A stretch of 49,490 nt of DNA from positions 1 to 49,490 of the forward strand of contig JBAREU010000222.1 of the NCBI GenBank assembly GCA_049796515.1, written 5' to 3'. The notes beneath the pieces are model-generated. The model saw nothing but the letters and a program-made list of their open reading frames with translations. It was not told the origin of the DNA and did no database searches. Made by a program: the position numbers and the translations under genes. Source of the DNA: Solirubrobacterales bacterium (GTDB lineage: Bacteria > Actinomycetota > Thermoleophilia > Solirubrobacterales > 70-9). Shown here piece after piece: positions 9,637-38,629 of this stretch (the first letter of the stretch is position 1; the number at the start of each line of letters is the position of its first letter).

Positions 9637-9722
9637 GCGGCTGTGGCGGAACTGGTAGACGCGCAAGGTTGAGGGCCTTGTGCCCCTAACGGGGCGTGGA
9701 GGTTCGACTCCTCTCAGCCGCA
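9637..9722 (+). tRNA. tRNA-Leu (anticodon GAG), class II with long variable arm; no encoded CCA
   Basis: Acceptor GCGGCTG/CAGCCGC, anticodon stem CAAGG/CCTTG with loop TTGAGGG, variable arm GCCCC-TAAC-GGGGC, T arm GGAGG-TTCGACT-CCTCT, discriminator A. Confidence 0.9.
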
Positions 9723-9744
9723 TAAGAAGCTCCTGCAAAGAGGA
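9669..9744 (+). repeat. att core, copy 1 of a perfect 76-bp direct repeat (anticodon loop to 22 nt past the tRNA 3' end)
   Basis: Base-for-base identical to 22828-22903. Confidence 0.9.
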
Positions 9745-9968
9745 ACGTTTCGAGCAAAACCAGGCATCGCCCGCCGTACTGAGTCGCGGTCCATTGCGGA
9801 CCATTTCGGCAGCAATGGGACGTACCTCGGCTTCTCTACGGAGTGCCCCAGGCGTGGACGGGAGGTTCCCCCGCGCAGGAGAAGACCGCCGGTTTTGTTC
9901 CGATGAACCCCACAATGCGGCTGGAAGGAACTCAAATCCCCCCCGTGAGGCACGCGAAAGGAGGAGGA

Positions 9969-11222
9969 ATGAGAGAAGCGACGAGGCGCGCGCATGGGAC
10001 GGGCACCCTCTATGCCCAAAGGAGGGCGAACGGCCGCGAGGTCTGGTACGGCCGCTGGTATCTGGGCGAACGCCGGGTCAACCGCCGTCTGGGGCCAAAG
10101 CGCCGGCGCGGAACCGGCCACGGCCTGAACCGCACCCAGGCCGAGGCCGAGCTGCGCCGCCTGATGGTTCGCGAGCGACCGCCGGCGAGGGGCTCGACCT
10201 TGCCGTTTTCGAGCGTCGTGGAGCTGATGCTCCGCGATCTCGAAGCGCTCGAACGCAAGCCGACCACCCTCGACAACTACCAGGCGATTCTCCGCGCCCA
10301 CCTCCTGCCGCGATTCGGCGAGCTTTCCGTCAACCGTGTGAGGAAGAAAGATGTCGAGGAGTTCATGGCCGCTCTGACGCAGGCCGGACTGGCGGCGCGC
10401 ACGCGCTCGGGCATCTTCAAGCTGCTCTCTCAGGTCTTCAACTTCGCCGTGCGCCACGGCTGGTGCGAGGAGAACCCGTGCCGCTCGGTGCGCCGCCCGC
10501 GGGTTCGGGAGTGCTCGGAGATACGGTTCCTGAACCAGCAGGAGCTCGACGCCCTGATCGCGTCGATCGACGTATCCGCAGTGCCCTTCGGGTCCGCCGA
10601 CCGGGCGATCTTCCTCACCGCCGCGATGACCGGCATGCGCCAAGGGGAGCTGCTCGCGCTGCGCTGGCGCGACGTCGACTGGCAGGCGAAGCGAATCCGG
10701 GTCCGCCGCAACTACACCCGAGGGCACTGGTCGACGCCGAAGTCGCGCAGCGGCGAACGCTCGGTTCCGCTTTCGAGCAAGGTCGAAGCGGAGCTGAGGG
10801 CCCATCTGGGGCGATCTCGGTTCGCGGGCGAGGACGACCTGGTCTTCGCCAACCCGCTGAGCGGCGAAGTGCTTCCCCACGGCCCACTCGTGCGTCGCTT
10901 CAAGAAGGCGCTGAAGGCGGCCGGCGTACGGCAGGTCCGCTTCCACGATCTGCGCCACACCTTCGGGACCAGGATCGCCGCCGCCGGAGTGCCGATGCGA
11001 GTCCTGCAGGCGTGGATGGGCCACCGCGACTACCGGACCACCCTGATCTATGCCGACTACGAACCAGGGGACGAAGAGAGCGGACTCGTAGATGCCGCCT
11101 TCTCCAGCCCCCTCAGGCAGAAGGTAAATCCCCGCTTCCGGATCAGCTGGCGCCTTTCGCAACTGAGGGACTCATTGGCAACCGGCAGGAGAGAGCCGGG
11201 ACCTGCGATACCCCACCCCTGA
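9969..11222 (+). CDS. Tyrosine recombinase / phage-type integrase (island 1)
   Basis: ATG 9969 is preceded by AAAGGAGGAGGA. C-terminal catalytic motifs are TGMRQGELLALRWRDVD, FHDLRHTF and WMGHRDYRTTLIYADY. The upstream extension to 9843 is rejected. Confidence 0.9.
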   Translation: MREATRRAHGTGTLYAQRRANGREVWYGRWYLGERRVNRRLGPKRRRGTGHGLNRTQAEAELRRLMVRERPPARGSTLPFSSVVELMLRDLEALERKPTTLDNYQAILRAHLLPRFGELSVNRVRKKDVEEFMAALTQAGLAARTRSGIFKLLSQVFNFAVRHGWCEENPCRSVRRPRVRECSEIRFLNQQELDALIASIDVSAVPFGSADRAIFLTAAMTGMRQGELLALRWRDVDWQAKRIRVRRNYTRGHWSTPKSRSGERSVPLSSKVEAELRAHLGRSRFAGEDDLVFANPLSGEVLPHGPLVRRFKKALKAAGVRQVRFHDLRHTFGTRIAAAGVPMRVLQAWMGHRDYRTTLIYADYEPGDEESGLVDAAFSSPLRQKVNPRFRISWRLSQLRDSLATGRREPGPAIPHP

Positions 11223-11386
11223 CCCGTCCGGCGACCCGCCACATCTTGATCTCCGGCGACTGAGCGACTCTCGTTACTTAGATGGCTCGGGCGCCCCCGA
11301 CACGAATTGCGCCATCAAGTGAATTCATATGCTCCCAAGGAGGCTTGCGAATCCGACGCCGAGAACTGGCATTACGTAGCCGAGCA

Positions 11387-14185
11387 TCAGCGTTCGCGCA
11401 ATGCCTCGGCGGCCGCGTCTCTGACTGCCGCCGAGCGATGCTGGCCTAGACGCAGAAGAGCTGGCTTGATTTGATCACTCCGCCACTCCACGCCGACCAG
11501 CGCCATCGCTAACGCGAGCGGAACGCTCCTGCCCGGATCGCTGAGACAGGCTTCAAAGGCACCCGTGAATCCACCACCCTCCTCGCCGGCGGCGATCAGG
11601 TGGGCGACCCCACCTGCGGCAGTAGCCCGGACCCGGGGGTCGCCGTCCCGGGTGAGCGCAATAAGGACGCCTTTGTGCTCTGCGCTGGGGAGTTGGGCTG
11701 CGAGAAGTGCCGCGTAGTTGCGTTCCTGACCATCGCCACCGAGCAACTTCACAAGTCGAGGATCGGGGTTCTCCAGGGCACCGAGCGATGCGGCAAGCAC
11801 CGTTCCCGAAGCCATCAGGTCGCAGTCGTGACTCAGTTCGAAAGGACTCGGTTCGATCTCGCCGGCGCTCATCGCACCGGCGATCGAGGCGAGTCGCCCG
11901 GCTATCTCATCTGAGATCTGCGCTCCCCGCCAGGCGAGGGTGAGCAACGCCCCGCGTTTCAGCCTGACCGGAACGGCGGGCTCAGCCAGCAGTTCGAGCA
12001 GCGGATCCCAGGCTGCGAAGTCGGGGTGCCAGGCGTTAAGAGTGGCGAGATCCCGAGCGAGATCACCGGCGCCGATTCCCACCGAGCCGCCCCTCGCGTC
12101 CTCGATGATCTTCCTTGCTCGTTCTCCGAGCTCCTTCGTGGCCGCTCGCGCCACGCCCTCTGGAAGCTCGCGGGCTGCCCCCAGCCCCCAGAGCCCGTCA
12201 ACGCGGCCGGCTTCGGCCTCTGCCACGAGCTGCTCGCGGGCCTGCTCATCCCCGTAGCGCGCCGCAGATCCGACCAGGATCCGCCCCAGCGAGCCCCCAT
12301 GGCGCTCGCTCGCCTCGCGGGCTGCGCTGGCCAAGGAGTCGTCCCAAGTGCCGGCCGACACAGCGCTGACCACTCTCGACCAGGCGTCTTCGACCAACTG
12401 GTTCTCCCCAAGCGGATCGAGCTCGAGCACACGCTCCAAGACGTGGCGCTGGGTCTCCTTCTCGGTGGCCGCGGTGATGCCCGCCAAGGCATCCACCAGC
12501 TGCAAGTCCACCAGGTAGTGCGGTGAAGTCCTGGCAACGAACTCCCCCGGGTCCTCGATCGCCTGCAGTAGCCAGGAGGCCAGCCGCTCGGCCGCCTCGG
12601 GGTCGGCAAGATCACCGCCGAGCTCGACGAAGGTCAGGTCGGAAAGCGCGGTGGTGCGGGTGGAGAGCTCGGGCCGAACTCCAGCCAGAGCTACCGTAAT
12701 CGCCTCGCAGGGGCCTTGTGCGCGAACGTGAGGCAGGGCGAGCTTAAGACCCTTCTCATCGCCGGCGACCCTCAGCGTGGTTAGGCCAGAGGCGAGGGCC
12801 TCGGGATCAGCGTCTTTGCCGAGGCGGTGCAGTTCGTCGCGCCCGACAAGCGCACAAAGGCCGCGCCAGCCGGCTTGGTCGCCGCAGTGGCTCGCCTCGA
12901 CCGCTGCTGCGAAGAGTCGGTTGTGGGCATCGTCTTCGCTGCTCCACTTCATGCGCGGGTCGTGAGCCCAGTCGTCCTCGAAGCTGCGCTCGAAGACATC
13001 GGCCAGCCCGTTCCTGACCGTTTGGGATCGCCACCAGCCCGTCGGGGTGTCGGTGGCCTTGATCAGCTCCCGAAAATCTCGGTCTTCCCAATGGGAGAGA
13101 TTGAAGACCAGTGCGACAGCCGATGCAGCGATCGCGGTGGCGGTGACGTCTTTGCGCGCCAAAGAGGGTAGGTTCGCGAGCCCCTCCGCCTCAGCCTTAG
13201 CCTCCTCGCGCCTCCCAAGCTCGGCGAGCGCTCGGGCACGCTGGAGCCGAAGCCAAGCGTCATCGACCGTGGCCGCCTCGTCGCGTTCGATCTCTGCTTC
13301 CAGAACCGCCAATGCATCCTCGGGCCTGCCGGCGCCGGTCGCCAGGCTTGCCAGGGCGACCGCTGCGACCACGCGCTCCTCACTTCGCTCGGTTTCGCGC
13401 AGGACCTCTCGCAGGGGGACGTCCTCGTTCTCCCACATCCTCCTCCAGAAGGCGCCCACGAAGCGCCACCTCCATTGCGCATCCTCCAGAGCGGCATCCA
13501 GACCCGGGACCTCCTCCTGCTCTTCGGCATAGCGGTTCAGCTCGGTGATCCGCATCTGGGCCACCATCGCCAGCGCCTGCTCTGGCGTCAGGCTGCCCGA
13601 GCCCAGGTTGGGATGAGGAGCGATCAGCCGTGGCGCCAGCAAGGCGAACCGGAGCCTGTCGGGCGGAGGGATCTCCAGGTCGCCGCCCCAACTTCCTTCT
13701 AGCGAGGGCACCGAGCCGAAGCTCGCCGCCACCGCCAGCAGGTCCTCCTGATGCTCGGCGTCGACGGTCTGCGAGGCTGGAACGAAGATTTTCGACCCTT
13801 TGCCGGTGGAGCGGATCGCCGAGGGCGTGACGTGCTCCCAATAGGTGTCGTGCGTCTCCTCGTTATGGAGGACGATGAGCTGGGGAGCCAGGAGTCGTGC
13901 CCAGTTGCCTAGCTCGGTGTCGTCGTCATCGACATACCACCAACCGGTCACCTCCCCGCTCTCGTCCCTCTTGGGCCTCTTGAAGTAGCTGCGGTCCCCG
14001 GTTTTGACCTGAACGCCCATGTACATGCCGAGCTCGAAGCGGCGCTCATCGCGGGGGGAGGCGACGAAGTCGGTGCCGTTGTCGTGATCTGGGTTAGGCA
14101 TGACCGCCCAACCGAGGTACTCGAACTTCGACCTGACCTCGCTCTGTCCGCCCGATCCCTTCGCCTCGGTCTCTCCTGCCCGCAT
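11387..14185 (-). CDS. Large DUF4365 (PD-(D/E)xK-like nuclease) N-terminal domain protein with long TPR/HEAT-like helical-repeat body
   Basis: The N-terminus SEVRSKFEYLGWAVMPNPDHDNGTDFVA...MGVQVKTG fits the DUF4365 pattern. The rest is all-alpha with HEAT-like ends (DPRVRATAAGGVAHL, SAAVRDAAAEALRE). No P-loop was seen. The start could instead be TTG 14305. Confidence 0.55.
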   Translation of the reverse strand: MRAGETEAKGSGGQSEVRSKFEYLGWAVMPNPDHDNGTDFVASPRDERRFELGMYMGVQVKTGDRSYFKRPKRDESGEVTGWWYVDDDDTELGNWARLLAPQLIVLHNEETHDTYWEHVTPSAIRSTGKGSKIFVPASQTVDAEHQEDLLAVAASFGSVPSLEGSWGGDLEIPPPDRLRFALLAPRLIAPHPNLGSGSLTPEQALAMVAQMRITELNRYAEEQEEVPGLDAALEDAQWRWRFVGAFWRRMWENEDVPLREVLRETERSEERVVAAVALASLATGAGRPEDALAVLEAEIERDEAATVDDAWLRLQRARALAELGRREEAKAEAEGLANLPSLARKDVTATAIAASAVALVFNLSHWEDRDFRELIKATDTPTGWWRSQTVRNGLADVFERSFEDDWAHDPRMKWSSEDDAHNRLFAAAVEASHCGDQAGWRGLCALVGRDELHRLGKDADPEALASGLTTLRVAGDEKGLKLALPHVRAQGPCEAITVALAGVRPELSTRTTALSDLTFVELGGDLADPEAAERLASWLLQAIEDPGEFVARTSPHYLVDLQLVDALAGITAATEKETQRHVLERVLELDPLGENQLVEDAWSRVVSAVSAGTWDDSLASAAREASERHGGSLGRILVGSAARYGDEQAREQLVAEAEAGRVDGLWGLGAARELPEGVARAATKELGERARKIIEDARGGSVGIGAGDLARDLATLNAWHPDFAAWDPLLELLAEPAVPVRLKRGALLTLAWRGAQISDEIAGRLASIAGAMSAGEIEPSPFELSHDCDLMASGTVLAASLGALENPDPRLVKLLGGDGQERNYAALLAAQLPSAEHKGVLIALTRDGDPRVRATAAGGVAHLIAAGEEGGGFTGAFEACLSDPGRSVPLALAMALVGVEWRSDQIKPALLRLGQHRSAAVRDAAAEALRER

Positions 14186-14242
14186 GGGCTCAGTGAAGCA
14201 ACAATCACCGTCCGAGTGGGGCGGCGTGGAAAATGGCAACCG

Positions 14243-16057
14243 ATGGAGGGAACGCCAGCGAATTTCAGCTTCTCCCGGGCTGTGCGCGAGTGGTGCTTCG
14301 TCCAACTGCCCCTGCTCGACGTCGCCAAGTTCCGCAAGGAGGCGAAAGCACGCGGCCTCTCAGACCTCGGCCTCTTCGATCGCGATCCCTGGGAGACGCT
14401 CGATCGGGAGGAGCTTCTCGTCCCAGTCGCCTACGCCCGTCATGGGATGTGGCACTACGACATGCTCGGCTGCCTGGCAGACGGGGACCTTGCGGTGCGC
14501 GAGGAGGTCGGCTACCGGCCCTGGGCCCAGCTGGCCGAGGAAGCAGAGGCCATCGGCCAGGATGCCGTGCCGCAGGTCCTTTACCACCACTGGCAGCTCT
14601 TCTGGCTGGCGGATTTGCAGGACTACCTGAGGCCGGCGGTGGCGTGGAGTCGGCTGGGTAAAGGGCTCGACGATTTCTATGAGGCCCGGGCAAAGATCGC
14701 CGCCGCACCGAATCCGCTCCCGCTGGCGGAGCTGCGGGCCGCGGCGGAGCGATGGCGGAGAATGGAGCTCCTGCTGGTGCGGGTGCAGAACGCCTTCTAT
14801 CCGAGCCAGCGAGGCGGGCCGGGACGGACCCGCTGGAGCGGCGGGGTGATACCCGGCTTGACCGAGGACGCAGCCGAGTGGGCGATCGAACAGGCGCGAA
14901 CGCTCGACTACGAAGCCCTGGCGGCTGAGTGCGGCGTCGATGCCGGGCAACTCGAGAAGGACTACGAACAGCTCGTCTACGCCGGTCTCCACATCGACCC
15001 TGCCTGCGGCCTGCTCGAGCTTCTCGACCAGGTCTCCAGGCAAAGCCGCGAGCGCCTGCGGGGCGACGCCCTACGTGCCCTCGACTTCTACGACGCGGCG
15101 CGCATCCTGCGTGATTGGCACCAGCGCCTGACCGGCGGCGACCCTCTCCCCGACGTCGACGAGTACCGGGGGGTGAACGGCACCGAGGTGAAGTTGCGCC
15201 GCTATGGAACGCGCGACGTCCGCGGCAACCACGCCGTCCTTCCGATCCTCCTGGAGGAACACGGCCTCTATCCGTGGCGGGTGCAGCTGATCGGTGAGGG
15301 AGCTTCTGAGATCGCCGCCTTGCGGCTGATCCTTAAGGAGGGCTATGGGTTCTCCTTCGAGAAGCTGGGGATTGCCGTCACGGACATGGGAGGCTCGGAG
15401 ATACCCAGTAACGCCGAGCTGCTGCTTACGTCCTTCCGCGGCTATGCCAACTACTTCCTGCTTGTCTTCGACAATGAGGGGCGGGCGGAAGAGCTGATTC
15501 AGACGCTGGTGCGGGCCGAAGTGATCGAGGGCACGGGCGAGAAGCAGCGCAAGGCGATCCGCGAAGAAGCGGCTCGCGCTGCGAAGCAGATCGAAGATCC
15601 GGAGGCACGGCGCACCGCCCTGCGAGCCGCATTGGACGCTGCCAATTCCCTGAGCCAGGCGCCGGGCACCGCACCAGAGTTCGTCCTATGGAAGGACAAC
15701 TTCGAGGCCGACAACTTCGCCATCGGCGAGCTGTGTCGTGTGGCGGAGCAGTTCGCAGCCGAGATCGGGCTTGAGGGCTTTGTCTTGGATTCCGACGCGC
15801 TTCATGCCGATCTCGAGGGGGGCCAGCAAGAAGGAGAGACAAAAGGCATAGCGTCCCTCGTACTGGACCAAGCCGCCGAGAAAGACTCACGGTTCTACCT
15901 CTCCAAGCCGGAATTCGCAGAGAGGCTTGCCCTCTTTGCGCTCGAGAACCCCGAGCCGCAGGAGGGCAAGCGCCGACCCATTCTTGAACTCGCAGAACAC
16001 CTCGTGCAACTCACCTGGGCAGATCGTCGTCTCGCCGGCATGTTGCGTCGCTCCTAA
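14243..16057 (+). CDS. Hypothetical protein with C-terminal Toprim/OLD-like domain
   Basis: The C-terminal half has VQLIGEGASEIAAL (EG-x-x-E), VTDMGGSE and LLVFDNEG (DxD-like) in Toprim order. The N-terminal half is unrecognised. The start is uncertain (ATG 14243 chosen, ORF open from 14084). Confidence 0.45.
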   Translation: MEGTPANFSFSRAVREWCFVQLPLLDVAKFRKEAKARGLSDLGLFDRDPWETLDREELLVPVAYARHGMWHYDMLGCLADGDLAVREEVGYRPWAQLAEEAEAIGQDAVPQVLYHHWQLFWLADLQDYLRPAVAWSRLGKGLDDFYEARAKIAAAPNPLPLAELRAAAERWRRMELLLVRVQNAFYPSQRGGPGRTRWSGGVIPGLTEDAAEWAIEQARTLDYEALAAECGVDAGQLEKDYEQLVYAGLHIDPACGLLELLDQVSRQSRERLRGDALRALDFYDAARILRDWHQRLTGGDPLPDVDEYRGVNGTEVKLRRYGTRDVRGNHAVLPILLEEHGLYPWRVQLIGEGASEIAALRLILKEGYGFSFEKLGIAVTDMGGSEIPSNAELLLTSFRGYANYFLLVFDNEGRAEELIQTLVRAEVIEGTGEKQRKAIREEAARAAKQIEDPEARRTALRAALDAANSLSQAPGTAPEFVLWKDNFEADNFAIGELCRVAEQFAAEIGLEGFVLDSDALHADLEGGQQEGETKGIASLVLDQAAEKDSRFYLSKPEFAERLALFALENPEPQEGKRRPILELAEHLVQLTWADRRLAGMLRRS

Positions 16058-16122
16058 CGGGCCCCTGCTGCTCACGGCAACCCCCAGTCCGATGCGCAAC
16101 GCCTCACGGTGCCTGAGAGTTC

Positions 16123-17244
16123 TTACCGCGGCAGGTCCTGCCACGCCTCCAGGCCAGCCGCGCGGGCAAGCTCGTTGACGGCTTGATGAGCAACCTCAGA
16201 AAGCTCGTCTTTGTCGGGCGGGAGAGTCACCTCAATGCCGATTTGGATGTGATCGCTGGGCACCAATCCACTGCCAGCGCGTTGATGCGTAAGCCCGACT
16301 CCCTCAAAGCCCCGAACCAAGACATGGCCAATTGCCCGTCCCTGTGCTCCGAGCCCTCGAAAGAGCTTGGCAGCGGCAACGAGCAACAACCCGATCGTCT
16401 CTTCGAGCAACTCGGGCCGAATCGTGGTCGACTGAGCATCGGGGAACTCAATCCGGGTGGCGAGGATCCCCCCTGCATCGGCGATCACCGAAGTTCGTCC
16501 CTCCATCCCCACTTGCGTGGTCGTGAACGTAAACCCGCGCTGGTCAAATCTGCCCTCGCTCACCCGATGGGCAGGATTGGGTGGAGTCGGAGCGTCGAAT
16601 AACTCCCGCGAGGCCTCCCGTGCTTCACGTCCAAACTGGATCGCTAGGAGTCGGTCGGCGAATCCCTCCGGTCGGGTGAGGGGAGCGAGCCGAACGACGA
16701 ACTGGCGAGGGACAGGCGTCAGGTCGAGGGTTTTCGTTTCGCGGGGGGCGGGCTCGATCTGGCTTAGGGCATAGGGCAGGGAGTGCAGACGCTCGCGAGC
16801 ATCGCGGCGTGCCTGCTCGCCGCGCTTCGCCAACTCCAACAACTCGGCGTGCGACTGAATGCGACGCAGCCCGCCTGGCTCTCGAATCGGAACCGAGCCG
16901 TCGCCAATCACGATGTGAGGCGTGTCGGCTGACTCGAGCACCCTGATCACCCCGATATTTACACCGTCGAGCTCGCGGACATCCGCCGCAAACGGCGGGA
17001 GGGGATCAACCTGGCGGCTCACTTTATGGCGGAGCTTGTCGGTGAAGTCTCCCGCCCCCGGCTCATAGCCTTTAAGTACACCCTCATCAGCGACACCCAC
17101 CAGAAGCCAACCGCCCAGGGTGTTCGCAAAGGACGCCATCGCGGGCCCGAAACCGCCCTTCGGCTCTTGCTGCTTTCGCTCGACAAAGAGAGACTCCCCC
17201 TCAGCGACAAGGCGGCGAAGTGACTCCTCATCGAGGTCTGCCAT
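16123..17244 (-). CDS. AlbA_2 / Schlafen-like DNA-binding domain protein
   Basis: The N-terminus ESLFVERKQQ...MASFANTLGGWLLVGVADEGVLKGY matches the AlbA_2 (divergent AAA/Schlafen) signature. About 200 C-terminal aa are unassigned. The start is taken at ATG 17244. Confidence 0.6.
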   Translation of the reverse strand: MADLDEESLRRLVAEGESLFVERKQQEPKGGFGPAMASFANTLGGWLLVGVADEGVLKGYEPGAGDFTDKLRHKVSRQVDPLPPFAADVRELDGVNIGVIRVLESADTPHIVIGDGSVPIREPGGLRRIQSHAELLELAKRGEQARRDARERLHSLPYALSQIEPAPRETKTLDLTPVPRQFVVRLAPLTRPEGFADRLLAIQFGREAREASRELFDAPTPPNPAHRVSEGRFDQRGFTFTTTQVGMEGRTSVIADAGGILATRIEFPDAQSTTIRPELLEETIGLLLVAAAKLFRGLGAQGRAIGHVLVRGFEGVGLTHQRAGSGLVPSDHIQIGIEVTLPPDKDELSEVAHQAVNELARAAGLEAWQDLPR

Positions 17245-17350
17245 CGACAGTCGGCGAAAGCTCACGTCCGTCACCACCCGAGCATTCCAGAATGGGTGGT
17301 TCGACGACTCCGAAGGGAGGATGAAACGGCGACTGGAGGCGATCAGGTGG

Positions 17351-18379
17351 TCAGATCTGTAGCGGCGGCTCCCGCGAGCCCGTCGGATCAACCAGACCGA
17401 GCAGGATATCGTCGGAGCCCTGAAAGTGGTCGATGAAACGCCCGAGATCCCAGCACTGCCACTCCGGCGCCACTTCTGCGCCTCGGACTTGTTCGCGTAG
17501 GCACGACATCACAGCTCCCGAGAGGACATCTGCCAACTGCACTGCGACGCATTCGCGCGAGTCGACCGTTTCGATCTCCTCTCTGTAAAGCGGGTACTCG
17601 AAGTGGACTTCGCCAACGTCGAAAGCGGCGGGTTCGATCTCTCGGCTCGAGAAACGCAGCAACAACTCGTGCCAGCGCCGAACGACATTCGAGTCATCGT
17701 GGATGACCCGGAACGGCTCGCGAAGGCGCTGGGACCAGTGGTGCAGTTGCTCGACGAGACCCGTCAGCGCCGGCTCGAGCGCATCCCTTCCAGCGTCCAC
17801 GAGCTCGGCGAGCGAGGCCGCCTCATCCGGGACGGGCTCGAAGAGGATCCCGACGGGCTGGCCCGCCGCAGAGACCTTCACCGCAGCGCGGGCACTAACC
17901 AGCTCGGTGATCCGCTCCTCTCGCTCGGGTCGGCGCACGGCGGCAATAAATGCCTCCTGCCAACGCCTCCAGATCTTCTCGCCCGCCTCCTCGGGCCCTT
18001 GACGCTGCAGGACAGAGGCGATTTGGCGGTGCATGCCCGAGGCGTAGAAGTGGTGGGTGCTCGCCGTGGCGGGCTCCCAAAGAAGATCGACCATCTTTCC
18101 GGCGACCATCCAGTCCTTATCGACGGGGACGACGCGGGCGCTCTGGGGGTCCAACAGTCCCGACTCGAAGATCTCCGCCAGGATTTGCCGTCCCATCCGG
18201 CTCGTCCGCAACCGGGAGAACTTGAGCTCGGCGTAGGAGGTGCCGTCGAGCAGCGCGGAGACTGGACCAGCCACCTCCACCTCCGGTCGCGCCACCGAGG
18301 CCAGGGTGCAGATCGGCTGAGTAGGGTCAAGGAGGTTCTCGCCGCTGTTGCCACTCTCGTTGAAGGCGACCTCGATCAT
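17351..18379 (-). CDS. DUF3800-like protein
   Basis: N-terminal IEVAFNESGNSGE (DESG-like) and C-terminal VQLADVLSGAV motifs in the DUF3800 arrangement. Confidence 0.5.
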   Translation of the reverse strand: MIEVAFNESGNSGENLLDPTQPICTLASVARPEVEVAGPVSALLDGTSYAELKFSRLRTSRMGRQILAEIFESGLLDPQSARVVPVDKDWMVAGKMVDLLWEPATASTHHFYASGMHRQIASVLQRQGPEEAGEKIWRRWQEAFIAAVRRPEREERITELVSARAAVKVSAAGQPVGILFEPVPDEAASLAELVDAGRDALEPALTGLVEQLHHWSQRLREPFRVIHDDSNVVRRWHELLLRFSSREIEPAAFDVGEVHFEYPLYREEIETVDSRECVAVQLADVLSGAVMSCLREQVRGAEVAPEWQCWDLGRFIDHFQGSDDILLGLVDPTGSREPPLQI

Positions 18380-28479: not shown

Positions 28480-28494
28480 AGACCCTCCCCGCGT

Positions 28495-31400: not shown

Positions 31401-31623
31401 GCGCCGTGAACACTGCTTCGCGCGGAAACGTCCCGACGTAGACGGTGTGCCGCCACGCCTGGTCTTTCGTCAGTCGCTGCCCCTTGAGCGGGTGGCCGGC
31501 ATCCCAGGGCAACGGTTTCTCGGCTGCGAGGTCGAACACCCGCTGCGACGGATCGGCCGCCGGGATCGCCGGCGGGCTGAACATCTCGACAGCTCGCCAA
31601 AATTCAATGACCTTCCCCTGCAC
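28495..31623 (-). CDS. SF1 helicase, Upf1/DNA2-NAM7-like, with large N-terminal unknown domain and coiled-coil insert
   Basis: Walker A NGPPGTGKTT, motif II LLVDEAGQ, VVVGDPLQLEPI, GTIHTAQGKEADIVILVLG, NVAVSRARHRLYVIG. There is an Arg/Glu-rich coiled-coil segment between motifs I and II. Confidence 0.85.
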   Translation of the reverse strand: MQGKVIEFWRAVEMFSPPAIPAADPSQRVFDLAAEKPLPWDAGHPLKGQRLTKDQAWRHTVYVGTFPREAVFTALNGVFPAADDSFEERPSGSSALLALAVTDRGVMLERSAVLSACAWATARALDPGPESADWLDGFADLEAEVAMQLEEMYLGEEGDEAAVLDWTALTECRAAAIHALEVADVLSVGGIRVRSEIVARRTAEEVEHDFLNSFIADDLARVVAAADQGNVGSALRDYMRSSAELDIRDRVDVRTELDDVRRATDPDRVPLGRWPASPDRPLALGQQLAVDEAVAMPGAGGHLFAVNGPPGTGKTTMLRDLIAALVTERAERLAALPDPSDAFIDEPHRWKTTGYQRVVHRLRPELTGFELVVASSNNGAVENVTLEIPSGEAIDAPWREQVEHVDYFPALAERAMSAGRRTSHSSSGRADQPAWALIAARLGNQKNRRDFVNAVWWTEQRKGDDDRPPPPSGLRDLLTAWEAHPGDSSWAEAVAAFERARDRAAAIRDDRLLVREALDRLAELESELETARETERTTRERVAASRPRRDRLDGVLRSQEDERRRRIEAHEDARQRRPWILRLRARAEWRAHDRQLAADIAAIDTLLRETSDEVGALDEEMRTEGEATAVVAAIEGALDECRQVLSRYRELPSAQLPDGKWLWDRQARERQAPWTDVEWNRARTELFLAAVRLHRAFLVHAAKPMRESLDGAMEIVSGRAPSSLPEDAVLAAWQALFLLVPVVSTTFASVSRLFGPLSAEALGWLLVDEAGQATPQNAVGALWRSRRAVVVGDPLQLEPITTIPFPAEQAIRAHYGVGEEWLTGRSSVQTLADRLNRLGTTLPGVERPVWIGAPLTVHRRCDQPMFDLSNTIAYDGLMVDATDPALAQEFATLYPTLPQSKWIDVSSHSSQGHWVPAEGEEVDRILTHLQGVGFDLSQAMAITPFRGVAQRLRERARQHPGLKAGTIHTAQGKEADIVILVLGSDPARDGARAWAASRPNLINVAVSRARHRLYVIGDRNAWMRHRYFDVLADRLPHGQPRT

Positions 31624-31785
31624 ACGGCCCGACGATACTTAGGGACAAGGCACGTGGGTGAACCAGCGCAACCGCCGGGAGCCCGGGACTCGCCGGTGAC
31701 GCAACGCGAGATGACATGCCTCGCAACAGAGAGACTCATGAACTCCGGGGTCGTTTCGGTTGACCTGACGCTGGCTGGCCGCAGC

Positions 31786-33432
31786 CTAAAGTCGACGGGG
31801 GATCTTGAACCGGAAGACGGTGGGCGAAGAATCGACCAAACCAGCCGGGCTCACGGCGCTGGCCTCGAAGACATGCCAGCCGGGCTTCAAATTGCGATAG
31901 CGGACGATTGGGCCACACGACCTAAGACGGCGAGCGTCTAGCTTGCAACGGAAGCTCGCGCCAGATTCGCTCGAAGCAAGGACGAAGCGGGCGAAACCGC
32001 GTCGAGGCCGAACCTTTCTTCGGGCAATGCGGGTGTTCGGTGCGATGGCGCCAGCAAGAGAGAGCCCAGGGAGAGGCAGTCGCTCGGTGCTCGTGTCGAT
32101 TTCCAAGTTGAAGCCTCCCGTCGCACCATTGAAACCATCAACGGCGAGCCGGTAGACCGTACCTGCGTCGATGTTGAGAGCCACTCCCCCTTGCCTGTTG
32201 GCCGGCAGACACCCTGGACTCACGGGATTGTCGCTTTGGGCTATCGACTGCAGGCTCTGCAGCGAAGCTCCGGTGTAAACCGCGAGAAGGGGACGGAAGC
32301 TTGCCTGGCAGACACTGAAGCGCACCGAGCCGGTGATCGGCGCTTTCCAGGCGAACCAGATCGATGCCCCACCCGCATTGCCGGCGTGGTTTGGCTCTCC
32401 GACCTGCTTCGTCGCACCGATGTTGGCGTAACCAATGATCAGGCTTTTAGAGCCCTGCAGATCACCAGATGCCTCGAAGTCATCGTTGGCAGGGAAGATC
32501 GAAAGATGGAACCCTGGATCGGCCATCGCCCCCGCACCAGTCAGGGTGCTCGGTTTGCCATCGATCGCGATCCAGTAAGTGACGCCCGCGTTCGCCATGA
32601 AGGAATAGCGGCAGTCGGGTTCGCCACTAAAGCCGACAACGGGGCTCAGGGCATCGACCGACGGCCCCGTGTAGACAGCGACAACCGTTTGATTCGGTAT
32701 CTGCCCGCCGCAGGCCTGGATGAAGGCGCCGTTCGTGCGCGGTGCGGTCCATTTGAACCAGATCGATGATCCGCCGCTCCTCCCGCGGTGGTCGGGCTCA
32801 CCAGCCTCTTTCGTCGCCCCCCAGTTCCCGGAGTCGAGGGTGAACGCAGTCCCCGTTCCCGGGATCGGGGTCGCGTCTGCGAAATCGTCGTTGGCAGGCT
32901 GGCCTTGAGACTCGACCTGCAGCTCAATGGCTCCCTCCCCATCGGGGGATGGCTCCCCGCTAGCGTGATAGCCGTTGCCGTCGACCTGCAGCTGGTACTT
33001 GGTGTCAGCGGTCGCCCTGAACGTGACCTCGCTGCCACCGATACAGCCTGACGTAGGACCAAAGCTGTAGCGGTTGCTTGACACCTCGGTCAATGCGTCG
33101 AAGGCGCTTCCCGTATAGACGGTGAGGATGGTGTCGGGCTCGCTTCCACAAGTTCCGATCGTGATGTGCTCCGTGTCCGGCGCTTCCCATTCGAACCAGA
33201 TCGAGTGACCAGCCGGAACGAACCCAGAATGGCTCGGCTCGCCGACCTCGACCGTCGCTTCGGAGTTGGTGGTGCTCAGCGCGATTGGGAGTGCCGAGCC
33301 GAGCTGTTGACGATCCGAGAAGTCGTCATTGGGCGGGGCGGACGCAACCGAAAGCGAGGGCGTAACACAAGCAACCGTCGCGACGACAGCCACAGAGCCC
33401 AAGATTCCCCCACGCGCTCGCCCCAGCCTCAT
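31786..33432 (-). CDS. Secreted protein with three tandem PPC-like (pre-peptidase C-terminal type) repeats and a C-terminal Ig-like module
   Basis: Signal peptide GGILGSVAVVATVACV. Three units of about 130 aa each open with P(P/A)NDDF. The tail is FRCKLDARRLRSCGPIVRYRNLKPGWHVFEASAV. The start is taken at ATG 33432 (ORF open to 33462). Confidence 0.6.
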   Translation of the reverse strand: MRLGRARGGILGSVAVVATVACVTPSLSVASAPPNDDFSDRQQLGSALPIALSTTNSEATVEVGEPSHSGFVPAGHSIWFEWEAPDTEHITIGTCGSEPDTILTVYTGSAFDALTEVSSNRYSFGPTSGCIGGSEVTFRATADTKYQLQVDGNGYHASGEPSPDGEGAIELQVESQGQPANDDFADATPIPGTGTAFTLDSGNWGATKEAGEPDHRGRSGGSSIWFKWTAPRTNGAFIQACGGQIPNQTVVAVYTGPSVDALSPVVGFSGEPDCRYSFMANAGVTYWIAIDGKPSTLTGAGAMADPGFHLSIFPANDDFEASGDLQGSKSLIIGYANIGATKQVGEPNHAGNAGGASIWFAWKAPITGSVRFSVCQASFRPLLAVYTGASLQSLQSIAQSDNPVSPGCLPANRQGGVALNIDAGTVYRLAVDGFNGATGGFNLEIDTSTERLPLPGLSLAGAIAPNTRIARRKVRPRRGFARFVLASSESGASFRCKLDARRLRSCGPIVRYRNLKPGWHVFEASAVSPAGLVDSSPTVFRFKIPRRL

Positions 33433-33520
33433 TAGACGAAAGCCTACCGAGCGGTGATGCAAGGGACGGGTCGAAGCTCGGCTTGGCTGAGTCGGACTGT
33501 CGCGCCCACCAAAACAGCAG

Positions 33521-33590
33521 AAAAATTGCGGACCTTTCTGCGGACCTCCAGATCGGTAGCCTGCGTAATCTCAGAGCACCTCAGATCACC
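33521..33590 (+). promoter_or_regulatory. att-arm-like segment with tandem TGCGGACC motifs (homologue of 22744-22814)
   Basis: TTGCGGACC at 33526 and CTGCGGACC at 33538, then ...CTCAGAGCACCTCAG as in the island 1 right arm. Confidence 0.4.
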
Positions 33591-33716
33591 ACGCAGCTCG
33601 AGCTGGCCGTCGTCGAGTACATCGCCTGGTTCAACAACGACCGTCTGCGCGAATCCCTCGGCGATCTGCCACCCGCTGAGTTCGAGCACCTATACGTTGC
33701 CCAGAGAGTCAACTGA
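33588..33716 (+). pseudogene. IS3-family transposase remnant (extreme C-terminus of the rve integrase domain only)
   Basis: The translation TTQLELAVVEYIAWFNNDRLRESLGDLPPAEFE matches the conserved IS3 OrfB C-terminal end. No upstream transposase sequence is present. AT-richer DNA follows up to about 33840. Confidence 0.65.
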
Positions 33717-33890
33717 GCTATCCATAGAGAAGATTGGAAACCAACTCAAAAAGTCTCCATGGAACCTGGTCCGGGTCAAGTTGATTGCGAACCATAGTGT
33801 GTATCACCATCGAGGTAGCTCCGAAAATTGCTTACTTGATGATTGTGGGTTACCTTCTTCAAAGTGAGGGGTCATGCGACGTTCTTGTCG

Positions 33891-35858
33891 ATGGCGTTTG
33901 CGGGACTCTGCGCATGCTTACCTTCTGTCCCGGCGTTGGCCGCTTCGGGATCGCAGCCAGCCGTAGCCCGCGCACACGTCCCCTCTGCCTGCCTCCACAG
34001 GCCGGCCACGATCCGCGGCACCTCGGATGACGACCGCTTGATCGGAACTCCGAGCCCGGATGTCATCGTCGCCAGCTCCGGCGACGACCGCATCGTCGGC
34101 GGCGACGGTGACGATCTGATTTGCGCCGGGCCCGGCGAGGACCGAGTCACCTCAGGCGCCGGCGCCGATCTCAGTCAGGGTGGTCCCGACGCCGACCTGA
34201 TCTTTGGACGGCGGGGGAACGACGTCCTCCGGGGCGGAGACGGGGACGATCGGCTAAATGGCGGATCGGGCGTCGACGGCTGCGCAGGAGGCAGCGGGGG
34301 CGATCGCCTGATCCTCTGCGAGGGTCCTCCCCATCGCCACAACTCGACCTCGAATCGCCCCTCGCCGGCAAAGGAGAACGGGGGTTTGCCGGGGGCCAAC
34401 CCGCGCCCTGCGGTACCAGCGCCGGAGGGCAGATTCTCGACTGACCCCGCGATGTTTCCAGAGTTCGACGCCGCGATCGCGGACTACGCGATCCGCTGCG
34501 ATGGCAAAGAGGTCGCCGTCTCGGCGGCGGCGACCTCGGGTTCGTCGATGAGCGTTGACGGCCAGGCGCCGCACGAGGGAGCCTTCGAAACGAGAGTCGC
34601 ACTGGAACCCGAGCAGGAATTCACGGTTTCGATCATCCGCGAGACCGAGGCGCGCCACTACCACGTTCGTTGCCTCCCGCTCGATTTTCCGACCTGGAAC
34701 TACGAACGGTTCCTCCAGCCCGGTCATCGGTTCTACGTAGTAACCCCAACGCTGGGAGACCCCGCGCCACCGCTGATCGTGATCTTCGATGACCACGGGG
34801 TCCCGGTTTGGTGGTACCGCAACGCTCTTGGAGCGAATGACGGCAAGGTCCTGAACGACGGTTCGGTCGCCTTTTCGACGCACCTGGGGGCTGAATTCGG
34901 CTTTGCAACCGACCCAAGGTCGGCCTACTACGTTCGCAATCTCGACGGCTCGCCAGCCCATCAGTTCAGCTCCGCGGATGGCCCAGGCACGATCAAGGCG
35001 GTCGACGGTTCGACGGATTTTCACGAGCTGCAGGAACTGCCAAACGGCAACTTTCTCGTGATCTCCTACCAGCAGCGGGAACACGTCGACCTGAGCTCGT
35101 TCTGCGAGGAAGGCAATCCGGAAAACTGCGGCGCCTCCGATGATCACATCTACGACGGAGTCATCCAGGAGTTGGACCCCAGCGGCAATCTGGTCAGGGA
35201 GTGGAGCAGCCTCGACCACCTAGGAATCGACGAGATCGCGCCCCAATGGCGCGGCCTGGTTCTGTCACGTCCGCCACACGACGCCTTCCATATCAACGCG
35301 GTTGAGCCGGATGGCAACGCGCTACTCGTGTCCTCCTTCCTCGCCGACGCCGTCTATCGAATCCGCTGGGGAGAAGAACCCGGCAGCGGAGAGATAATTT
35401 GGAAGCTCGGCGGCGTGTCGACTTCGAAAAGCCTCGAGGTGGCCGGGGACCCCCTCGGCAGCTATCCCCTTTCCGCCCAACATGACGTGCGTCGCTTGAC
35501 CGACGGAACGATCACCGTCCACGACAACCTGCTGACCCCCCAGAGGGATCAGGCGCCGCGTGCCGTCCGCTACGTCATCGACGAAGCCAGCGGAACCGCG
35601 ACTCTGCTCGAAGAGGTCATCGATCCGGATGACCCACACCCGGGCTGCTGCGGCTCGGCGCGCAGATCCGATGACGGTTCCTGGCTGATGAGCTGGGGCG
35701 GTAACTCACTGGTCACCGAATTCAACCCCGACCACAAACGCACGTTCAGGCTTTCCTTCGGCGGCAAATTATTCTCCTACCGGGCGGTCTCCGCACGCGA
35801 CGGCGTGCTCAACATAGGGGCGCTGCGAGCGGGGATGAACGCAATGCACCCCGGATAG
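33891..35858 (+). CDS. Secreted protein: RTX-like Ca-binding repeats fused to an arylsulfotransferase (ASST)-like beta-propeller
   Basis: Signal peptide MAFAGLCACLPSVPALAAS. GGxGxD-type repeats (GGDGDDLICAGPGEDRV, GGDGDDRLNGGSGVDG). The C-terminal part has ASST-like blocks DFHELQELPNGNFLVISY, HINAVEPDGNALLVS and SAQHDVRRLTDGTITVHDN. Confidence 0.6.
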   Translation: MAFAGLCACLPSVPALAASGSQPAVARAHVPSACLHRPATIRGTSDDDRLIGTPSPDVIVASSGDDRIVGGDGDDLICAGPGEDRVTSGAGADLSQGGPDADLIFGRRGNDVLRGGDGDDRLNGGSGVDGCAGGSGGDRLILCEGPPHRHNSTSNRPSPAKENGGLPGANPRPAVPAPEGRFSTDPAMFPEFDAAIADYAIRCDGKEVAVSAAATSGSSMSVDGQAPHEGAFETRVALEPEQEFTVSIIRETEARHYHVRCLPLDFPTWNYERFLQPGHRFYVVTPTLGDPAPPLIVIFDDHGVPVWWYRNALGANDGKVLNDGSVAFSTHLGAEFGFATDPRSAYYVRNLDGSPAHQFSSADGPGTIKAVDGSTDFHELQELPNGNFLVISYQQREHVDLSSFCEEGNPENCGASDDHIYDGVIQELDPSGNLVREWSSLDHLGIDEIAPQWRGLVLSRPPHDAFHINAVEPDGNALLVSSFLADAVYRIRWGEEPGSGEIIWKLGGVSTSKSLEVAGDPLGSYPLSAQHDVRRLTDGTITVHDNLLTPQRDQAPRAVRYVIDEASGTATLLEEVIDPDDPHPGCCGSARRSDDGSWLMSWGGNSLVTEFNPDHKRTFRLSFGGKLFSYRAVSARDGVLNIGALRAGMNAMHPG

Positions 35859-36082
35859 CGTTCCACGCCGTACTCACACTCGCCATACCGCGAGCCATTG
35901 TCGGTACCCCAGGTTGTCGACGAATGCTGTTCACAAGTGTGTGGGCGGGTCACCTAGCGCTCTACACCGCATTGCCGCCTCGACCTTCCATCGCAATCGC
36001 AAGCGCCGCCTGCCAGCCGCCGAAGCGGTTGTAGACGGACTGCTACGGGCTTGCGCTCTTGGCTTCCGCTCAGTAGGCGGGC

Positions 36083-36436
36083 TCAAGACCGGCAATCATC
36101 GGGAAATGGCGCACGTTGGTTGGTGAGCAGATCCGCATCGAGCAGGAGCGCGGTGGCGGCGATTAGATAGTCGGCATCGTCGATACGGCGGTGGCGCTGG
36201 GCAAGGGATGCAGCAACTCGAGCTACCTCCTCTCCAACCGGAACCCAAGAGACCGCCGAGAAGAACTGCTCAAGTGCCTCGGCCTCTTTCCTTCGCACGC
36301 CCGCCAGTAGCTCGAAGCGCACTATCTCGCTGGCGAGGAGCGACTCTTCAGCGTCGATCAGGCCACTCAGGAGTCCAACCGCGGGAGGAGAGCCGCAAAG
36401 ATGGTCGATTGCGACACTGGTGTCGAGCAGCTTCAC
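36083..36436 (-). CDS. vapC: PIN-domain toxin VapC
   Basis: [13 protein letters not shown]...[11 protein letters not shown]...[19 protein letters not shown]. The GTG start overlaps the antitoxin stop (GTGA). Confidence 0.8.
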
Positions 36437-36699
36437 TTGACGCCGAGCCGGGCCAAGCGATCGTTGAGGTCACCACCGCGGATCGCATCGACGTACTCGG
36501 CGCCGCTGGCGCGTCGGCCCTGCCATGAGCCGGCGCTGGCCTTGAGGGCGCGAAGCTTCTCGTCCTGCCCCTGCTCCCCGAACGTTGTGCGGACCGCCCG
36601 GCGGATCAACTCAGAGCGAGATGCACCGGTGTCGCGTGAGGCGCGCTCGAGGAGCTCCAGCTCACCCTCGCCCAGATAGACCTGCGTCCTGACCTGCAT
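36433..36699 (-). CDS. Ribbon-helix-helix (CopG-type) antitoxin VapB
   Basis: [37 protein letters not shown]. The start is taken at ATG 36699. Confidence 0.75.
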
Positions 36700-36936
36700 C
36701 CTGCTTATAACACCACTATACATCTTGTGGTGTCGTTTGAACAAGGGCGAAACGGCCCGAAACCCATCGAAAGCCCCCGGAAATCGGGTCACGTTCTAGA
36801 GCCATAAAGGGGCGGAGAGTGGGCGGCTCGTGCGCCACTCGGTGCCCCAGTCAGACGCCGCTCATGCAGCGATGAATCGCAGTGGCGAGTCAGGACACTG
36901 CCGGGGAGACGGCCTGATCAACCACGAAGAGCAGTC

Positions 36937-37653
36937 CTACCCGACGTCCGCAGCCCTCGCGAGTTGATCCTCCACGTCTTCGCCTATCACCGCCTCGGCG
37001 TGGCCGGCCCATACGCCGGTTGGCCGTAGCGAGACCAGCTGACGAATCGACTCGCGCGCCACCTCTGTGTCCCAGTTGCTGAATGGGTGGGGGACGCGGG
37101 CGCTTGCGGGCGAACCAGTCTCAGCGTCAAAGGTGAAAATCACGTCGGCCGCCAACAGGAGGCGATCGGAGTTGCGGAAGAGCGCGATCTGGCCGGGTGC
37201 GTGCCCCGGGATCCCGACGACACGGAAGCCGGCGATCCGCTCGCCGACATCGACCGTCCCTGCAATCTGCACCGGTCCTCCGTCCCAAACGGCGTGTAGT
37301 CGCGGGAGCGCTTCGCGGACCAGATCGCTCTCGATGAGGCTGTAGTCGGTGTAGCTGCGGCCGGCGTCGCCTTCGGCATCGACGACCTCATTCGGATGGC
37401 AGTAGACCGGCGCGCCGAGTTCGTTCGCCGCCCCTCGGTGATCGACGTGGCTGTGGCTGAGGATCACACAGTCAAGGTGCCCACCTGCGGCAGCGAGGAT
37501 CGCTGGGCCGGTGCCCTTGACACCAGCGTCGAAGGCGACCGGTCCGTCGGGACCGTCGATCAAGTAGACGTGGGACTTGAAGGGCTCGCCGACGCTTACC
37601 TGCCTCACATCGGCTGCGATCTGCGTGACAACAGCTGTCCCCTCGTCGGTCAT
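36937..37653 (-). CDS. MBL-fold metallo-hydrolase
   Basis: The HxHxDH motif ILSHSHVDHRG and a downstream GHAPG. The start is taken at ATG 37653. Confidence 0.8.
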   Translation of the reverse strand: MTDEGTAVVTQIAADVRQVSVGEPFKSHVYLIDGPDGPVAFDAGVKGTGPAILAAAGGHLDCVILSHSHVDHRGAANELGAPVYCHPNEVVDAEGDAGRSYTDYSLIESDLVREALPRLHAVWDGGPVQIAGTVDVGERIAGFRVVGIPGHAPGQIALFRNSDRLLLAADVIFTFDAETGSPASARVPHPFSNWDTEVARESIRQLVSLRPTGVWAGHAEAVIGEDVEDQLARAADVG

Positions 37654-37827
37654 GGCTGGGATTATCCACTGGCGCTGCGGCGTTAAGAGCGACCTTGCCC
37701 GCCCACGGCACTGCCCTCTCCCCACCGCCGACCTACGTCGCCGTACTGAGTCAAACCTCCTAGGGACGTTCTCTATTGACCCTGCATGCGGGCACCTTTA
37801 CGCCGTGCTGCCCTGCGCCAAGAGACG

Positions 37828-38214
37828 TTAGGTGGATGGGCTGCTGAGTCGCCGATGGGCGACTTCGTAGACGGTTTCGGCGTTCGACTCGCGAGGGTGA
37901 TGGCGAATGCCGAATGCGAAAGCTCGTAGGGCCATTGGGCGATTCGGATGTTTCACGGCGACGAACACAGCGCCGAAGCGGCCGTCCGGCCACGGAACAT
38001 AGGTCTTGACGCAGCCGCCAAGCATCGTGCCATCCTGAGCTTCGTCGCGGCATGCCTTGAGTCGGGATTGCGAGATGCCGCCTTCCCGCTGTAGCTCCTT
38101 GCGAAACTCGCGGAGCGCAATCTCGGCGCTCGTGGGCAACCGCTCAAGGTCCTCGGCGAGGGCGTCTTCATCGAAGCCAACCGGAAAGATCGGCTCCGGC
38201 CGCCCTGCGGCCAT
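37828..38214 (-). CDS. Hypothetical protein, possible RelE/ParE-fold toxin
   Basis: 128 aa. The C-terminal block GRFGAVFVAVKHPNRPMALRAFAFGIRHHP....ETVYEVAHRRL loosely resembles the RelE/ParE C-terminal strands. It starts 2 nt after the stop of the upstream small ORF. Confidence 0.35.
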   Translation of the reverse strand: MAAGRPEPIFPVGFDEDALAEDLERLPTSAEIALREFRKELQREGGISQSRLKACRDEAQDGTMLGGCVKTYVPWPDGRFGAVFVAVKHPNRPMALRAFAFGIRHHPRESNAETVYEVAHRRLSSPST

Positions 38215-38216
38215 GC

Positions 38217-38417
38217 TCAGCCCTCGTCGTCAGTCGGCAGCGAGCCGAAGTGCTGGTCGAACTCCTCGGGACTAAGACGCTCCTCGCCGTGCCGAGCGAG
38301 GATCGCCTCTACAGAGGTATCCCGGCCCTCCACCGCCTCAAGGGCAGCCAGCGCTGCATCTACGCGGTCGTCGGGCAAGTGATCCAGAACTGAGTGAGCC
38401 TTGTCTCGGGTCGTCAC
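38217..38417 (-). CDS. Small acidic hypothetical protein, possible antitoxin partner
   Basis: 66 aa, acidic, helical-looking. It is tightly coupled to 37828-38214. Confidence 0.35.
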   Translation of the reverse strand: MTTRDKAHSVLDHLPDDRVDAALAALEAVEGRDTSVEAILARHGEERLSPEEFDQHFGSLPTDDEG

Positions 38418-38496
38418 GACGGAAATGATAACCGGGTGATCGGCAGGCCCCCGCGAGACTGGCCGTGCGCCAGTGGTGCGCAGCCAACCCCGAAAT

Positions 38497-38526
38497 AGCC
38501 GGATTCAGCCGGTCACAGCCGGATTC
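38497..38526 (+). repeat. Three tandem 10-bp units AGCCGGATTC / AGCCGGTCAC / AGCCGGATTC
   Basis: Read directly. One helical turn per unit. About 50 nt upstream of the partial tRNA. Confidence 0.6.
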
Positions 38527-38576
38527 GATCTGGCTTATAGGCCATTTTCGCTCTGCTATGCGGCACGGACTCAGCC

Positions 38577-38629
38577 TGAGGGCCTTGTGGGTGGAAGCAC
38601 CCGTGATGGTTCGACTCCATTCAGCCACA
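38577..38629 (+). repeat. Diverged 3' half of a tRNA-Leu (att remnant); no 5' half
   Basis: TGAGGGCCTTGTG-GGTGGAAGCACCC-GTGATGGTTCGACTCCATTCAGCCACA begins at the same anticodon-loop position as the 76-bp repeats. Differences in the variable-arm and T-stem are compensatory. Confidence 0.7.

Follow-up and report, generated by a model that had tools for sequence, protein, structure and literature searches.

The stretch analysed here (the window) is a 49,490-nt piece of DNA from a Solirubrobacterales bacterium and represents one complete contig of a metagenome-assembled genome (MAG) of 446 contigs. Its segment from position 9723 to about position 42436 can be considered, with a probability of about 85%, a series of integrative genomic islands that have accumulated at the 3′ half of the lexA-adjacent tRNA-Leu(GAG) gene of this uncultured Solirubrobacterales lineage. 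This reading is carried by tRNA-derived repeats, gene content, an empty site in related genomes, the scar of an insertion sequence (IS), and the homology of element ends to islands located at the same tRNA elsewhere. Successive integrations at one tRNA, at least two and probably three, had been proposed in an original prediction for this DNA, and the present analysis agrees, at least three events being needed. Downstream of the tRNA there follow an apparently complete island 1, an island 2 with a truncated right end, an integrase-less remnant designated element 3 (E3), a decayed 3′ half of tRNA-Leu(GAG), and a distal accessory segment.

The integration target, tRNA-Leu(GAG) at 9637–9722 on the forward strand (Rfam, 51.4 bits), is the sole tRNA gene recognised by ARAGORN in the window. 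The conserved left chromosomal flank of the integration site is lexA (8868–9572, reverse strand; Pfam LexA_DNA_bind and Peptidase_S24), whose linkage to tRNA-Leu(GAG) is kept in 60 of the 61 related genomes searched. On the other side, the conserved chromosome resumes at a DUF2252 gene (43419–44849, reverse strand), adjoined by a 2-hydroxyacid dehydrogenase gene at 42454–43422 that occupies the same position in the relative G027. The original prediction had named a comparison with genomes lacking the insertion as the way to define the empty site, and two genomes of the same genus provide it: the tRNA lies only 0.6–0.9 kb from the DUF2252 homologue, namely approximately 590 bp in G018 and 880 bp in G022, as against 33.7 kb in the window. 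Because of this difference, about 33 kb of the window is accessory. The G+C content at third codon positions (GC3) is approximately 0.87–0.92 in the flanking core genes versus 0.76–0.87 across 9.8–43.4 kb.

An exact 76-bp recurrence had been claimed, and it was found as such: the attachment (att) block at 9669–9744 on the forward strand (attL), consisting of the last 54 nt of the tRNA and 22 nt that include a small hairpin, is identical at 76 of 76 positions to 22828–22903, a tRNA 3′ fragment on the same strand that serves island 1 as attR and island 2 as its left junction. Beyond nucleotide 76 the two copies differ at six of the next 23 positions (94% identity out to 99 nt), and the two left ends are then 78% similar over 1.47 kb, reaching into both integrase genes. 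In the window and in most fragments of the relatives the identity starts at TTGAGGG or TGAGGG; a few fragments reach 2–5 nt into the anticodon stem. The small hairpin, GCTCCT-GCAAAT-AGGAGC, lies directly after the regenerated tRNA in islands with integrases of the family represented in the window (the Int1/2 family; positions 9724–9744 and 22883–22905) and is followed by Ts in relatives. Sites that lack such islands have the native terminator hairpin (CCCCCG...CGGGGGTTTT) in its place. Neither a fourth att remnant nor a native terminator hairpin was detected in the window by regular expressions and blastn-short with the flanks of G009 and G014.

Island 1 (9745–22827, forward strand) measures 13,159 bp from repeat to repeat. 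It encodes the tyrosine integrase Int1 (9969–11222, forward strand; PF00589, 2.5e-31; phrog_1), in which the catalytic residues are kept. The reading frame of int1 is open from 9843, the likeliest start being the ATG at 9969, which is preceded by the ribosome-binding site AAAGGAGG and located 225 nt past the repeat. Near the opposite end, a gene on the reverse strand (21386–21808) encodes an HTH_17/AlpA-type excisionase-like protein (PF12728, 1.5e-11; phrog_66, annotated as "excisionase and transcriptional regulator"). The cargo comprises genes for a DUF4365-nuclease/HEAT protein, an OLD-Toprim-like protein, a Schlafen AlbA_2 protein, a DUF3800 protein, a pentapeptide protein and an Xre/MbcA-like protein; PADLOC gave no matches for the majority of the proteins of island 1. 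The right arm of the island (22744–22814, forward strand) stops 13 nt short of the att copy. With perfect att repeats, an intact integrase gene and the excisionase-like gene, island 1 looks complete and, given its candidate arm sites described below, it may have retained the capacity for excision.

Island 2 (22904–33590, forward strand) is approximately 10.7 kb in length. Its tyrosine integrase, Int2 (23135–24439, forward strand; PF00589), starts at the ATG at 23135 behind AAGGAGG, 232 nt past the repeat. Thus, as had been proposed, each repeat copy is followed by an integrase gene and the two products are collinear homologues; they are 76% identical and both retain the R..K..HxxR..H..Y catalytic residues. 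Closer kin are found in other genomes, the integrase of L058 being 92% identical to Int1 and the copy in G005 93% identical to Int2, and homologues of the window's integrase stem from MAGs of uncultured soil Solirubrobacterales. It is also worth mentioning that G005 holds a broken Int2-like integrase gene with an apparent insertion of approximately 2.2 kb.

The cargo of island 2 is entirely different. It comprises a Thoeris-like set of three ThsB-like TIR proteins and a SLOG protein, a Mokosh-like set of an MkoC-like superfamily 1 (SF1) helicase and a PIN_10 protein, and an uncharacterised protein of 558 amino acids. Over the two short ThsB-like genes, at 27000–28300, the G+C content falls to 0.54. 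The right arm of the island, the 70 nt at 33521–33590, is approximately 80% identical to that of island 1, and at 33591 this homology breaks into a fragment of an IS3-family element (33591–33783, forward strand) consisting of the last 41 codons of the transposase gene and the right inverted repeat. G010 and G011 contain long open frames whose C-termini match the fragment at 83–85% amino acid identity, the full-length transposase in G010 having 291 amino acids and the domain order HTH_21-rve-rve_2; in the DNA alignment the IS3 homology ends at ...GGTCCGGGTCA. Such a scar indicates that a deletion with one end inside an IS3-family element took the att copy of island 2 and whatever came after it. 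Having lost its right att copy, island 2 would be incapable of precise excision and thus fixed in place.

Beyond the IS fragment, element 3 (33784–38576) contains an RTX/arylsulfotransferase-like gene (33843–35858), a PIN-RHH toxin–antitoxin module (36083–36792), a gene for a protein of the metallo-β-lactamase fold (36937–37725) and a small open reading frame (ORF) at 37828–38214 that has homologues in G005 and G024, in each case at the first island's right end. The PIN and RHH proteins are 81–94% and 83–90% identical, respectively, to those of a module present in same-tRNA islands of G005, G010, G026 and G027, and the approximately 120 nt preceding the third tRNA half (38459–38576) are homologous to the right ends of the first islands in G005 and G024 and, additionally, to those of islands in G230 and G222. 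No integrase gene was found in the element, nor was a remnant of the reversed integrase gene of the G005-type first island when it was sought there. The att remnant that directly follows the PIN-RHH module in G027 and G010 is missing here, the homology stopping at the palindrome of the RHH promoter. Just upstream of the small ORF, a short ORF encoding an acidic product (38216–38400, reverse strand) looks like an antitoxin-type partner. In G031, which is devoid of an att fragment, a stretch located approximately 200 bp downstream of the tRNA is 80.5% identical to 38162–38418; it is probably the scar of an island.

Element 3 is bordered by the third tRNA-Leu(GAG) 3′ half (38577–38629, forward strand), a decayed att fragment with the GGTG-GAAR-CACC allele of the variable arm. 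A segment with the same anticodon-loop breakpoint, an altered variable arm and two altered T-stem pairs had been described from these positions, and all of these features were recovered. The half starts in the anticodon loop at TGAGGG and differs from the resident one at 15 of 53 positions, 12 of which form six compensatory pairs: four pairs of the variable stem and two of the T-stem are altered on both sides. The other changes concern two bases of the variable loop and position 71, which is A and not G. A tRNA search of the three segments had also been suggested; ARAGORN and Rfam find a single tRNA in the window, and when the third half is joined to the resident 5′ half ARAGORN still calls tRNA-Leu(GAG), with C2-A71 as the only mismatch. 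Because the preceding 120 nt match the right ends of islands in relatives, the third half is the right-end att fragment of a recognisable, although degraded, type of island.

The distal accessory DNA (38630–42436, forward strand; GC3 approximately 0.78) lies beyond the last att fragment and encodes a SIR2_2 protein (38828–40870) and a 488-amino-acid repeat protein (40970–42436). The former was not found in any of the 60 relatives, and the latter, for which PADLOC gave no match and which shows only a sub-threshold Replic_Relax match, has a weak relative in an island of G024. The gene of the 488-amino-acid protein contains an internal tandem duplication of approximately 510 nt (41274–41785 and 41901–42412; 70% identity), and each repeat copy resembles a protein of the G024 island at 27–29% amino acid identity. 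The segment is strain-specific and has no att site or integrase gene left. Most relatives have the native terminator hairpin after the tRNA or after the distal fragment; this terminator and the 4.1-kb flank common to the closest relatives, G009 and G014, are missing from the window, and in the rest of its genome that flank gave only partial matches of 74–76% identity on other contigs, probably paralogues. The array as originally predicted thus stands with respect to its repeats and integrases; the true end of island 2 at 33590 against the IS3 fragment, the third element without an integrase, and the extension of accessory DNA approximately 3.8 kb past the third half had been missed.

The two left ends share a further feature. 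The motif TTGCGGACC is located at 9794–9802 on the forward strand, 72 nt past the end of the tRNA, within the palindrome GGTCC-ATTGC-GGACC. In both islands it is located 71–72 nt beyond the end of the tRNA sequence, and two copies are present in each right arm (in that of island 1 at 22762, with a variant at 22750). The Int1/2-family islands of other genomes contain nine copies at +71/72, L074 and the second G005 copy being one place, and G010 carries the variant pair CTGCGGACC/TTGCGGACC at +72/+83; the motif is absent from empty sites and from islands with other types of integrase. Its 8-mer core, TGCGGACC, occurs 10 times against 3.4 expected, whereas with one mismatch allowed there is no enrichment of TTGCGGACC (22 versus 16.5 expected), so that the enrichment is confined to the exact core, in addition to the conserved position. 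As an arm-type or operator site, TTGCGGACC is a good candidate.

The lexA-linked tRNA-Leu(GAG) gene is an integration hotspot across the order. Of 36 same-genus genomes, at least 10 have one or two extra copies of the 3′ half, 2–30 kb downstream of the tRNA, and G027 adds one further fragment missed by BLAST. The locus of the latter genome (L049) contains a 9.5-kb island between 121-bp direct repeats that are 99% identical (871–991 and 10433–10553) and consist of the tRNA 3′ half and 66 nt; the integrase gene of this island is split across reading frames. In G037, a member of another family of the order, at least six matches of 3′-half length (query positions 365–440) are spread over approximately 55 kb on one side of the lexA-linked tRNA-Leu(GAG) (G037:C1:1661471-1716600), which would be a much longer array than that of the window.

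In the proposed course of events, the tyrosine integrase of each island would recombine the tRNA gene with the attP of that island, which comprises the short hairpin and a tRNA copy reaching from the anticodon loop to the 3′ end. As described for tRNA islands in general, the island DNA regenerates the tRNA gene and the old end is displaced (PMC4383910); here the full tRNA would be rebuilt from island DNA and the earlier 3′ half shifted to the far end of the island. Newcomers probably enter the intact tRNA, because the fragments lack sequence 5′ of the anticodon loop, and the youngest island would thus be the one nearest the tRNA. This order agrees with the gradient of decay, in which a complete island 1 is followed by island 2 without its right att copy, by element 3 without an integrase, and by the distal segment, where everything has been lost. 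The position of the crossover and the order of arrival are what we infer from these features.

The question of which 3′ half is native can be addressed by comparing alleles. The resident tRNA and the second att copy carry the T-stem GGAGG/CCTCT, which is present in none of the 29 relatives from the genus examined, all of which have GATGG/CCATT. Elsewhere, GGAGG/CCTCT was encountered in L058, beside the integrase 92% identical to Int1, in G346 (a full tRNA with non-terminator sequence after it), in G426 (a fragment), and at the second site of G384. In G014 the distal copy has the native terminator and the flank common with G009, and the flank of the tRNA-proximal copy differs. The pattern in G014 and the allele of L058, which fit the published rule of gene regeneration by the island, argue that the resident tRNA 3′ half is a minority, island-associated allele and the imported one.

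The T-stem of the third half, GATGG/CCATT, is the one typical of the genus. The GGTG-GAAR-CACC arm of this half was found in six genomes of the genus and nine of the sister genus g35, 15 among the 401 of the order. The form GGTG-GAAA-CACC stands beside integrases in G004, G027 and L062, which belong to two lineages only 57–60% identical, and in full tRNA genes with a native-type terminator in G254 and G293 of this genus and in G358, G429, G296 and G384 of genus g35. A strict link between integrase clade and tRNA allele was considered and rejected, the third-type arm being present beside two integrase lineages and beside native-type terminators. A terminator is no proof of an empty site, since some islands (in G005, G230 and G222) carry their own terminator copy. 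Both A71 and the variable-loop G are private to the third half; G71 is present in all 16 other third-type copies printed and in every other copy seen, and because of this privacy A71, like the loop G, looks like decay of a non-functional fragment.

These data bear on the possibility that the third half was brought by an older element as its own tRNA copy and is not the displaced original end of the host gene, to which we give somewhat less than an even chance. The GGTG-GAAA-CACC allele is found in tRNA genes directly before integrase genes in G004, G027 and L062, and it flanks the 9.5-kb island of G027 as the 99%-identical 121-bp repeat; the closest relatives, G009 and G014, have the arm TCCC-TAAC-GGGA and not that of the third half; and no native terminator or flank follows the third fragment. 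The same allele may nevertheless be chromosomal, as it occurs in full tRNAs with native-type terminators in G254, G293 and several g35 genomes, and the integrases beside it are from the two distant lineages mentioned above. Moreover, the C2-A71 mismatch, from which import of the third half had originally been argued, does not serve that purpose, A71 being private to this copy and all other copies having G71. In the usual geometry, the far-end fragment is the half that was in the tRNA before that island came (PMC4383910). As the arm occurs both beside integrases and with native-type terminators, the third half may be either a former chromosomal allele or element-borne.

Two further explanations concern the array as a whole. 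Islands 1 and 2 could be alternative occupants of the site in different strains, chained by the assembler through the 76-bp repeat, and a MAG of 446 contigs with a perfect repeat shorter than a read gives some ground for such a chimera. It is considered very improbable: an assembly artefact is unlikely in view of the comparable arrays that G010, G005 and G014, genomes of the genus that are single-contig or near-complete, carry at this tRNA, the flanks of the second copy diverge at once on both sides, and the commonly used maximum k-mer sizes exceed 76 and would resolve the repeat; the structure formed by island 2, the IS fragment and element 3 would be unaffected in any case. Still less probable is a tandem duplication of one island followed by divergence, without independent integrations. 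The left ends are indeed homologous over 1.47 kb and the right arms approximately 80% identical over 70 nt, but an att block that is 100% identical contrasts with a protein identity of only 76% between the integrases, the cargoes have nothing in common, and each integrase has closer kin elsewhere (L058 for Int1, the G005 copy for Int2).

The accretion of islands at the tRNA is therefore the preferred reading, and the following points weigh against it. The MAG is fragmented, and for the tandem joins over the 76-bp repeat one depends on the assembler. Island 2 has no recognised excisionase. The right boundary has neither an att site nor the native flank, the extent of the oldest part being set only by composition and by absence from relatives. 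Finally, mosaic 3′ halves combining the GGTG-GAAA-CACC arm with the GGAGG/CCTCT T-stem are present in G346, G426 and the second copy of G384 (L102, L113 and L119); they would imply exchanges between the variable arm and the T-stem as well, beyond those in the anticodon loop, which weakens the conclusions on the order of arrival.

Upstream of lexA, the window contains a bacterial class A RNase P RNA (7595–7966, reverse strand; 198.8 bits) and, beside it, a c-di-AMP riboswitch (7379–7524, reverse strand; 81.5 bits), the latter located upstream of a DPBB/lytic-transglycosylase-like gene (6888–7382).

Tandem arrays of this kind are known from the Islander collection (Hudson, Lau and Williams 2015, PMC4383910), in which 3919 islands include 125 arrays of at least two and four arrays of at least three, and which defined the anticodon-centred class of attP ("A" sublocation). 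The window resembles the Islander/TIGER arrays in having a tyrosine integrase gene by the regenerated tRNA, a same-orientation 3′ fragment marking the far end, an identity block that starts in the anticodon loop and would place the site in class "A", and several islands in series at one tRNA. Of the features by which Islander recognises islands, the intact regenerated tRNA at one island end is tRNA-Leu(GAG) itself; the displaced tRNA fragments, both on the forward strand, are the exact copy at 22828–22903 and the one at 38577–38629 with 38 of 53 positions identical; and an integrase is present in the islands of Int1 and Int2 and absent from element 3 and from the distal segment. Unlike in a strict Islander array, only island 1 has both its own integrase and its own fragment: the fragment of island 2 is replaced by the IS3 scar at 33591, and element 3 has a fragment and no integrase. 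The array can be considered a further example of the catalogued tandem tRNA islands, now in an under-studied lineage, and involves no new mechanism.

Defence cargo at integration hotspots is well known, from the hotspots of P4-like satellites as well as from tRNA-linked hotspots of enterobacteria and Pseudomonas. The cargo of the window likewise appears to consist mostly of anti-phage defence and toxin–antitoxin genes, with Thoeris-like TIR/SLOG proteins, a Mokosh-like helicase, SIR2, nuclease modules and toxin–antitoxin pairs, and the site shares with defence hotspots the quick turnover of anti-phage systems at one conserved position, the cargo differing strain by strain. Unlike in the P4-like satellite hotspots, no capsid, primase or packaging genes were recognised here, and the carriers look like minimal islands of an integrase and an excisionase. 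Another group for comparison comprises the pSAM2-type actinomycete integrative and conjugative elements (AICEs), which are actinobacterial integrative elements residing at tRNA genes. The actinobacterial host, the tyrosine integrase and the att site at the tRNA 3′ end are common features; in islands 1 and 2, however, Pfam and PHROGs revealed no replication, FtsK/Tra-like transfer or relaxase genes, the sub-threshold Replic_Relax match of the 488-amino-acid protein being the sole hint of such a module in the window, and no virion, packaging or satellite hallmark families were detected among the scanned proteins. Because no conjugation, replication or virion genes were found, islands 1 and 2 would, on present evidence, be neither AICEs, prophages nor satellites. 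We know of no description of such islands in an uncultured Solirubrobacterales lineage.

The array provides a worked example, from a poorly studied soil lineage, of the accumulation of defence genes at a single tRNA hotspot and of the decay of older islands the farther they lie from the tRNA. For a group without genetic tools it also supplies a candidate integrase/att pair, formed by Int1, the 76-bp core and the arm motif TTGCGGACC, as well as a natural set of empty and occupied sites for comparison. A wider implication concerns the tRNA gene itself. Across the genus its 5′ half is invariant but for one anticodon-stem base, which is compensated by its partner, and at least 12 alleles, all with base pairing preserved, are known for the remainder, which runs from the anticodon loop to the 3′ end. 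Mosaic alleles joining the variable arm of one type to the T-stem of another are seen as well, including ones shared with the sister genus. A continual rewriting of the 3′ half of this essential gene by island traffic seems doubtful at present; if true, the functional tRNA-Leu(GAG) would be largely of mobile-element origin, and its sequence would record the last island family to have visited it.

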